Of a stretch of 64,000 nucleotides of DNA, positions 1 through 56,471 are shown one piece after another. The notes under the pieces are model-generated. The model was given only the letters and a program-made list of their open reading frames with translations. It did not search any database and was not told the DNA's origin. How positions within the stretch are numbered: the stretch's first letter is position 1; the number at the start of each line of letters is the position of its first letter. The stretch is from Hormiphora californensis. Lineage: Eukaryota > Animalia > Ctenophora. The translations under genes were made by a program, and so were the position numbers. Where the stretch lies: contig CM035352.1 in the NCBI GenBank assembly GCA_020137815.1, positions 9,323,176 through 9,387,175 on the forward strand, read 5' to 3'.

Positions 1-1430
1 TTCTGGTGTTAATGTCGTATTGCCCCACCAACTAATTACTAATTACTAATTACCTCTTCTGGTGTCGATGTCGTGTTGTCTCACCAACTAATTACTAATT
101 ACTAATTACCTCTTCTGGTGTCGATGTCGTATTGTTCCACCAACTAATTACTAATTACTAATTACCTCTTCTGGTGTTGATGTCGTATTGTCCCACCAAC
201 TAATTACTAATTACTAATTACCTCTTCTGGTGTCGATGTCGTATTGTTCCACCAACTAATTACTAATTACTAATTACCTCTTCTGGTGTTGATGTTGTAT
301 TGTCCCACCAACTAATTACTAATTACTAATTACCTCTTCTGGTGTCGATGTTGTATTGTCCCACCTACTAATTACTAATTACTAATTACCTCTTCTGGTG
401 TCGATGTCGTGTTGTCCCACCAACTAATTACTAATTACTAATTACCTCTTCTGGTGTTAATGTCGTATTGCCCCACCAACTAATTACTAATTACTAATTA
501 CCTCTTCTGGTGTCGATGTCGTGTTGTCTCACCAACTAATTACTAATTACTAATTACCTCTTCTGGTGTCGATGTCGTGTTGTCCCACCAACTAATTACT
601 AATTACTAATTACCTCTTCTGGTGTCGATGTCGTATTGTCCCACCAACTAATTACTAATTACTAATTACCTCTTCTGGTGTTGATGTCGTATTGTCCCAC
701 CAACTAATTACTAATTACTAATTACCTCTTCTGGTGTCGATGTCGTATTGTCCCACCAACTAATTACTAATTACTAATTACCTCTTCTGGTGTTGATGTC
801 GTATTGTCCCACCAACTAATTACTAATTACTAATTACCTCTTCTGGTGTCGATGTCGTATTGTCCCACCAACTAATTACTAATTACTAATTACCTCTTCT
901 GGTGTTGATGTCGTATTGTCCCACCAACTAATTACTAAATACTAATTACCTCTTCTGGTGTCGATGTCGTATTGTCCCACCAACTAATTACTAATTACTA
1001 ATTACCTCTTCTGGTGTTGATGTCGTGTTGCCCCACCAACTAATTACTAATTACTAATTACCTCTTCTGGTGTCGATGTAGTATTGCCCCACCAACTAAT
1101 TACTAATTACTAATTACCTCTTCTGGTGTCGATGTAGTATTGTCCCACCAACTAATTACTAATTACTAATTACCTCTTCTGGTGTTGATGTCGTATTGTC
1201 CCACCAACTAATTACTAATTACTAATTACCTCTTCTGGTGTCGATGTCGTATTGTCCCACCAACTAATTACTAATTACTAATTACCTCTTCTGGTGTTGA
1301 TGTCGTGTTGCCCCACCAACTAATTACTAATTACTAATTACCTCTTCTGGTGTCGATGTAGTATTGCCCCACCAACTAATTACTAATTACTAATTACCTC
1401 TTCTGGTGTTGATGTCGTGTTGTCCCACCA
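1..1430. repeat. 56-bp tandem repeat = exon 3' end + splice donor, >=25 copies
   Basis: Minus-strand unit TTGGTGGGACAATACGACATCGACACCAGAAGAG|GTAATTAGTAATTAGTAATTAG, continuous with exon 1398-1531. Confidence 0.95.

Positions 1431-56471: not shown

Follow-up and report, generated by a model that had tools for sequence, protein, structure and literature searches.

Minisatellites whose repeat unit spans an exon-intron boundary are known in amphioxus as "mirages", reportedly first described in a 2002 paper by Canestro. The available text of PMC3087553 describes them in Adh3 and in the globin genes BflGb6 and BflGb9, at both 5' and 3' exon boundaries, with length differences between haplotypes and with normal splicing supported by RT-PCR, and calls the mechanism unclear; the Adh3 mirage has units of 10-72 bp and shows somatic length instability. 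Mirages in troponin C and PGBD5 are added in the accessible part of PMC3902484. In human genes, minisatellites with their first unit across an exon-intron boundary are reported for F7 intron 7 (37 bp), IFI6/6-16, CBS intron 13, LMNB2 and PDGF, and mutagenesis of F7 showed that the most upstream donor is chosen even against strengthened pseudo-sites (accessible sections of PMC1557585). For human germline minisatellites, single-molecule typing of non-coding arrays showed that inter-allelic processes drive mutation (PMC2599865, in the portion available). Neither a systematic gene-wide or genome-wide count of such repeats nor a synonymous bias was found in the literature searched, which covered few subscription journals, and donor-spanning units do not appear in the accessible text of PMC10078293.

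Here, a window of 64,000 nt from the ctenophore Hormiphora californensis was analysed. The layout of its repeats is already known from human donor-spanning VNTRs and amphioxus mirages, and the gene described here is a further example. As in the mirages, the unit spans the exon-intron boundary (here modelled) and does so at both exon ends, in 16 donor and 6 acceptor families; the 10-72 bp units given for Adh3 in the available text overlap the 15-77 bp units found here. As in the human VNTRs described in the accessible sections of PMC1557585, the first unit comprises the exon end and the real donor, and pseudo-donors follow (5-25 identical ones in human genes; 24, 25 and 36 in the three large arrays here). 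Unlike the mirages, the repeats were counted gene-wide against null models, with 16 donors and 6 acceptors crossed in a gene of 83 exons, and many of them are not arrays but seeds, either two-copy or offset. The human VNTRs, in the same sections, occur as one array per gene and the F7 unit holds 4 exonic nt, whereas three large and 13 small families share one gene here and the large arrays hold 29-33 exonic nt. Splicing of the mirages is backed by RT-PCR and donor use in F7 was measured, according to the text available for each, whereas the splice outcome here is predicted from the exon model. What is new is a synonymous bias in the differences between exon ends and their intronic copies, which is not reported for amphioxus mirages in the available parts of PMC3087553 and PMC3902484, together with an intronic unit of the window that serves as the exon end in a second sample.

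Results

A predicted 83-exon gene hosts the repeats

The repeats lie in a predicted gene identified by its reading frame and SNP pattern:

56475 to 1398, minus strand: predicted host gene, 83 GT-AG coding exons; left end past the window edge

Candidate exons were picked by eye and snapped to AG and GT sites, so that boundaries are modelled and not RNA-based. The first 37 exons were in phase without adjustment; later phase breaks were fixed with alternative nearby sites, one added exon and one dropped candidate. The resulting chain of 10,654 nt and 3,551 codons has no in-frame stop, compared with 273 and 181 stops in the other two frames, and the median exon and intron measure 124 and 234 nt. 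Among the 80 best-supported SNPs (40 of 144 plus 40 of 81), 54 are exonic and 47 of these synonymous; of the 24 listed indels, one, of 3 nt, was judged by eye to be exonic. An open frame across a 42-bp array (7765-6164) was considered as an exon and dropped, since exons 68 and 69 are in phase when joined directly.

The predicted gene has a signal-peptide-like start, as judged by eye, and Pfam matches were obtained in seven of 30 scanned exons (WSC, four kringle domains, F5/8-like and sushi), one of them above the curated cut-off. The model predicts a giant mosaic protein of the secreted type, longer than 3,551 residues, with 23 of the 30 scanned exons lacking a Pfam family. A HMMER search with exon 73 returned 37 matches, a single one of which was close (77 aa, 78-79% identity) and stopped where exon 73 stops; this relative is a single-exon fragment and hence checks no junction. 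A word-indexed search of proteins of 180-2000 residues with exon 73 gave no match, and no full-length relative of the predicted protein was found by the word-indexed and HMMER protein searches with that exon.

Local duplications cross both donors and acceptors

Direct repeats were sought with a local, frame-blind search (offset 10-400, score at least 14), for which 60 kb of simulated sequence gives one such match. Within the gene, the search yielded 100 local families: 16 span a donor, 6 span an acceptor and the remaining 78 span no splice site, so that about one fifth of the exon ends in the 83-exon model are copied, splice signal included, into the following intron. No match lies wholly inside exons, although these make up 10,654 of the 24,921 collapsed nt. 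Five arrays within the gene exceed 1.4 kb, and three of them cross a donor. These three had been reported in a first-pass annotation of the window and are present as claimed:

1-1430, minus: 56-bp unit, 25.5 copies; last 33 nt of exon 83, donor 1398/1397 and 23 intron nt; 24 decoy donors
19954-21884, minus: 74-bp unit, about 26 copies (8.2 + 18.0); last 33 nt of exon 47 and 41 intronic nt; donor 21852/21851; 25 decoys
48643-50300, minus: 45-bp unit, 36.8 copies; last 29 nt of exon 11 (kringle) and 16 intronic nt; donor 50272/50271; 36 decoys

Folding of two units per large array as DNA gave -15, -27 and -7 kcal/mol, values that are not used as evidence because they have no control. The annotation had also listed 13 small sites, 12 of which pass the threshold and cross a modelled donor, whereas that at 13790 is a 12-nt, sub-threshold match; it had missed a donor copy at exon 65 (~8553) and six acceptor-crossing duplications. 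The small donor sites are:

1643-1708, minus: exon 82 donor duplication, offset 39, 8 exonic + 19 intronic nt
4022-4161, minus: exon 75 donor array, 35-36 bp, 4 copies
8545-8724, minus: exon 65 donor copy, offset 158, 14 + 8 nt
13790-13847, minus: exon 62 donor copy, 12-nt match below threshold; outside the 16
16869-16907, minus: exon 52 donor duplication, 20 bp, 2 copies, only 2 exonic nt
28383-28424, minus: exon 39 donor duplication, offset 27, 8 + 7 nt
31442-31508, minus: exon 32 donor duplication, 26 bp, 2.6 copies, 16 exonic nt
37255-37400, minus: exon 29 donor duplication, 51 bp, 2 copies (49 exonic + 3 intronic nt), plus one 30-bp copy
38604-38706, minus: exon 26 donor duplication, 37-38 bp, 2.7 copies, 15 exonic nt
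41088-41160, minus: exon 24 donor duplication, offset 51, 6 + 16 nt; adjoins hairpin 40996-41064
41445-41673, minus: exon 23 donor, 3 copies, 7-36 exonic nt
47290-47352, minus: exon 14 donor duplication, 29 bp, 2.2 copies, 14 exonic nt
54893-54993, minus: exon 4 donor copy, offset 80, 15 + 6 nt
55420-55572, minus: exon 3 donor copy, offset 130, 15 + 9 nt, 3 mismatches

The description of each copy as carrying about 30 exonic nt fits the large arrays (33, 33 and 29), whereas the small copies carry 2-49. Head-to-tail repeats are of minisatellite size, with units of 56, 74, 45, 35, 27, 37-38, 29, 26, 51 and 20 bp. Contrary to the annotation, the small copies are not all tandem; the single copies at exons 4, 3 and 65 (offsets 80, 130 and 158 nt) and some acceptor copies are not head-to-tail. 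Short inverted duplications of local sequence were also observed, at 40996-41064, 55174-55406, 23932-24060 and 19671-19736; two of them adjoin the donor copies of exons 24 and 3, which suggests template switching at these places.

Duplications extend across acceptors too, in six cases, and are thus not specific to donors:

50962-51141, minus: exon 9 acceptor duplication, 12 intronic + 30 exonic nt, copy 138 nt upstream
41785-42159, minus: exon 23 acceptor array, 27 bp, 14 copies, 10 exonic nt
38458-38580, minus: exon 27 acceptor copy, 10 + 13 nt, score at threshold
28012-28267, minus: exon 40 acceptor duplication, 34 + 43 nt, copy 132 nt upstream
8184-8258, minus: exon 67 acceptor duplication, 35 bp, 2.1 copies, 11 exonic nt
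4581-4641, minus: exon 74 acceptor duplication, 29 bp, 2.1 copies, 3 exonic nt

All donor copies lie downstream and all listed acceptor copies upstream, because geometry demands this if the exon is to stay intact. The pattern that the annotation had described, of copies always extending into the intron and leaving the exon intact, was indeed seen, but it amounts to geometry and survivorship, since no duplication is wholly exonic, and it extends to the six acceptors. Arrays confined to introns served as controls (strand not applicable):

32527-37254: largest array of the window, 39 bp, 122 copies, purely intronic
6194-7662: 36/42-bp intronic array, about 37 copies, stopping 6 nt short of the exon 69 acceptor
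2969-3316: 18-bp intronic array, 19 copies, stopping 1 nt short of the exon 79 acceptor
29243-29723: 18-bp intronic array, 26.7 copies, stopping 13 nt short of the exon 36 acceptor

Further intron-only arrays stopping 1-13 nt short of an acceptor were found at 30909-31414, 42706-42824 and 43353-43598. When intron-only arrays of at least four copies were counted, 7 of 16 ended within 15 nt of an acceptor without crossing it, compared with 2.8 expected (P=0.004, post hoc); at 10 nt the count was 4 versus 1.9 expected (P=0.09). The 18-bp unit at 2969-3316 contains a branch-point-like motif, and the acceptor that follows is the sole AAG in the model.

The donor excess is modest

Overall, donors were crossed 1.3- to 2.6-fold more often than expected, with P ranging from <0.001 to 0.13 by choice of null. 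For 67 events, omitting mobile elements and microsatellite-like families, uniform placement along the collapsed gene gave an expectation of 7.8 donor crossings versus 16 observed (P=0.003) and of 7.7 acceptor crossings versus 6 observed; for 91 events, with mobile elements kept, the expectation was 6.1 for donors (P<0.001) and 6.1 for acceptors. This placement null merges neighbouring events, and the mobile-element mask was made by hand from self-BLAST and reading. The difference between donor and acceptor crossings (16 versus 6) was borderline (two-sided P=0.052). A position profile without masked intron 63 and without the first acceptor showed duplication at 15 of 82 donor boundaries, versus an interior rate of 10.4% (P=0.02), and at 6 of 81 acceptor boundaries; positions 40-50 nt into the intron were duplicated as frequently as the donor (13-16 of 79-80). 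Comparison of donors with the first 70 intron nt gave P of 0.055-0.13, and P=0.06 for true tandem matches alone. The excess was strongest for matches of at least 95% identity (13/82 versus 7.7%, P=0.01). Permutation within each of 80 introns gave 14 donors versus 9.0-10.9 expected (P 0.03-0.13) and 6 acceptors versus 9.0-10.9 (P 0.02-0.15). Duplicated donors scored 8.8 and other donors 7.4, which was not significant (P=0.11). The net pattern is a modest donor excess and a modest acceptor deficit, and possibly some clustering of repeats toward either end of introns.

Decoy donors keep their GT

Dozens of decoy donors exist, as the first-pass annotation had stated, with 24, 25 and 36 in the large arrays. 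Of 105 copies detected at 17 donors, namely the 16 and that of exon 62, 104 have kept GT and the one without it is a partial match; the copies thus resemble those of amphioxus mirages, in which splice signals are kept; one further exon 75 copy was found beyond the 105. With GT intact in 104/105 copies, there is no sign of selection against decoys. Every donor copy lies downstream of the modelled donor, and this upstream donor keeps frame, whereas read-through to the first decoy gives a frameshift or stop in 16 of 17 cases, exon 82 alone keeping frame. Stops and frameshifts behind decoys were rejected as a sign of regulation because they are expected by chance, about two thirds of read-throughs shifting the frame. 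The first donor of exon 75 is weaker by score than its decoys (6.9 versus 9.0), and strength alone would therefore favour a decoy. For the gene to be read, the upstream donor would have to dominate or the remaining products be destroyed, and choice of the upstream donor, or decay of mis-spliced RNA, may fairly be inferred.

Exon ends and intronic copies differ mainly at synonymous sites

When each exon edge was compared with its intronic copy, 20 of 29 differences were synonymous in the exon frame (14/19 at donors, 6/10 at acceptors). The expected synonymous share is 22-29% if the copy alone drifts and 37-45% if the exon drifts too at silent sites, and against the latter the observed count gives P of 0.0004-0.008. 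The two wrong frames yielded 4/29 and 5/29, and pS/pN was 7.7-13 over four thresholds versus 2 expected. By exon, at the main threshold, nine lean synonymous, two lean the opposite way and one is a tie. Small events alone gave 15/22 (P 0.003-0.025), and removal of CpG-linked changes left P at 0.01-0.06. When every copy of donor events was scored, 13/21 differences were synonymous, and 6/12 in the three large arrays. The commonest variant of each large array is silent (21/36, 18/24 and 15/24 copies); no polarity of variants toward the exon was seen by eye along these arrays. The test comprises 29 differences, four of them from one array, and the pattern was spotted before it was tested.

A comparison with contigs of other samples bears on the same exon edges. 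Near exon 75, an X6 contig lacks 71 nt of the array (skipping 4085-4155, joint 4084-4156), and at this joint the intronic unit of the window forms the exon 75 end, with the peptide unchanged, 4 nt different and the donor stronger. The data thus point to past service of intronic copies as exon ends. In the most economical account, units likely trade places with the working exon end by unequal exchange between divergent alleles or sister chromatids, and amino-acid changes would be purged from the intronic copies because units would pass through the working position. As in human germline minisatellites, the arrays consist of variant units, and inter-allelic gain and loss is the process proposed here for the synonymous bias; unlike the typing described in the available portion of PMC2599865, the case for exchange here draws on codon positions and one contig joint.

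Donor copies differ between samples

The main X6 contig also lacks the exon 82 donor duplication (39 nt skipped, joint 1642-1682), and an X6 contig lacks 88 nt of an intron-only repeat (joint 5660-5749). Donor-crossing and intron-only duplications therefore both vary between samples, and length differs here (71 nt at exon 75, 39 nt at exon 82) as it does between haplotypes of amphioxus mirages. The annotation had looked to copy-number variation between individuals, and two small donor duplications (39 nt and 71 nt) are indeed missing from the main X6 contigs; the comparison covers 3 of the 16 donor families, and the large arrays lie outside it, their copy number not being readable from contigs. 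The X6 joints were read in contig assemblies; the divergence of sample S2 (0.29-0.39 of words) may mean that it represents another population or species. Diversity between samples is very high at 3335-6190 and 1300-2960 (for instance, the 189 nt of exon 80 contain 11 of the listed SNPs), and sample S1 carries two divergent haplotypes in these regions.

Across the region 1300-2960, word depth over the 56-bp array was 514-1130 versus 43-89 in the flank in X1, possibly the window's own sample, and 1280-2333 versus 190-754 in X6, from a separate study; it was also raised in X4 and X5. These values were read as presence only because such depth gives no copy number. The loose end of X6 at 1430 continues into another 56-bp unit. 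Since word depth is raised in short-read contigs of two samples, the 56-bp array is not an assembly artefact. For the arrays in general, an origin as assembly or long-read artefacts is extremely improbable: although the depth check covered just this one of the three large arrays and used short-read contigs rather than raw long reads, the depth is raised in both X1 and X6, the loose end enters a further unit, and units show recurring variant patterns.

Mobile elements and other repeats in the window

A 4.3-kb element at 9020-13365, with 128-nt terminal inverted repeats (91%), is inserted within a kringle exon. In the model it is spliced out between a GT in one of the repeat ends and an AG in the other, which preserves the frame and inserts three residues relative to the empty-site reading. 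It resembles introner cases that add residues (available text of PMC9860276), here as one copy with modelled splicing. Two 72-bp arrays of 11 copies each, inverted relative to each other, lie within this intron 63 element at 11531-13129. Inverted repeats, terminal or internal, also mark intronic elements at 17577-18831, 22709-23667, 24417-25339, 26850-27673, 46275-46764 and 53675-54830, some of them nested; such elements are likely non-autonomous DNA transposons. A 110-nt interspersed repeat has 95% identical copies at 22132-22240 and 26408-26519, and the adjoining sequence at 26520-26800 has, by eye, a tRNA-derived look. Upstream of the gene (57746-60630 and 62653-63516) lie large arrays of 35 bp in 83 copies and 10 bp in 86 copies, and a hydrophobic open stretch at 63780-64000 could be the last part of an adjacent gene on the minus strand.

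Discussion

The reading that we favour, with a probability of roughly 0.55, is that these are mirage-type repeats: short duplications arise in introns throughout the gene, those that cross a donor persist through use of the first donor, and copies exchange with the exon end by unequal recombination. Selection would remove duplications arising inside exons. Use of the upstream donor, as in human F7, would make donor-crossing copies near neutral, and acceptor-crossing ones would be tolerated less often. Misalignment of divergent alleles or sister chromatids at exon edges would bring units in turn into the functional position, and amino-acid-changing variants would thereby be purged from copies that are now intronic. 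A few two-copy seeds would run away into long minisatellites, and the decoys would have no function of their own. This reading concerns one gene in one window, and its exchange step is inferred from few sites.

Plain survivorship, in which random slippage and removal of exonic copies act with no junction bias and no exchange, is a doubtful account of the whole pattern. With collapsed introns of ~144 nt, at least one in ten survivors would cross a donor by chance, and it accords with a duplication frequency at donors (15/82) that does not exceed the one found 40-50 nt into the intron (13-16 of 79-80), and with the P values of 0.055-0.13 against the first 70 intron nt and of 0.06 for true tandem matches alone; exon-anchored copies should also remain detectable for longer. 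It leaves unexplained the synonymous bias, the swapped exon end in X6 and the arrays stopping just before acceptors, and it sits poorly with the placement null (16 versus 6-8) and with an excess strongest at 95% identity or above (13/82 versus 7.7%, P=0.01). The proposal of the first-pass annotation, in which donors are genuine mutational hotspots and drive intron growth, is unlikely; such hotspots could arise, for example, where splicing or transcription causes breaks at the 5' splice site. Uniform placement favours the hotspot view (16 versus 7.8, P=0.003, or 6.1, P<0.001), as do the donor crossings of three of the five arrays above 1.4 kb and the slightly higher scores of duplicated donors (8.8 versus 7.4, P=0.11). 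The excess is cut, however, to 1.3-1.6-fold by the per-intron nulls (14 versus 9-11), positions 40-50 nt into the intron are duplicated equally often, six acceptors are crossed and others approached by large arrays, and the placement null merges neighbouring events and relies on the hand-made mask. Donor copies do contribute 5,636 of the 45,821 intron bases, but this is only 12%, less than the 10,554 in intron-only repeats or the 14,533 in mobile-element-like DNA (hand-masked).

It is very improbable that the decoys are functional, their copy number tuning expression via unproductive splicing and decay. The decoys are intact, 16 of 17 give a frameshift or stop, and two pseudo-sites are in use in IFI6 and CBS according to the accessible sections of PMC1557585; yet about two thirds of read-throughs shift the frame by chance, an intact GT is expected since the copies are young, two small duplications are missing from the main contigs of the second sample, and intron-only repeats vary likewise.

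The mirage-type reading may extend beyond this gene. We suggest, tentatively, that in highly heterozygous genomes repair or recombination between divergent alleles, anchored in conserved exons, slips at exon edges, and that this would seed mirages genome-wide at both splice sites and keep swapping the exon end with intronic spares. What makes the present gene stand out from single cases is that it holds so many repeats, that samples differ in them and that intronic copies show signs of use as exon ends; a genome with about one fifth of its donors copied would turn single anecdotes into a statistic. Reads at exon edges, and splice sites, are ambiguous in such genomes, which calls for caution among annotators and in variant calling. 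Should the genome-wide process be true, the rules of splice choice (first donor; acceptor uncrossed) would be written into the positions at which arrays start and stop, and the intronic decoys would be an archive of real exon alleles, selected at one remove.
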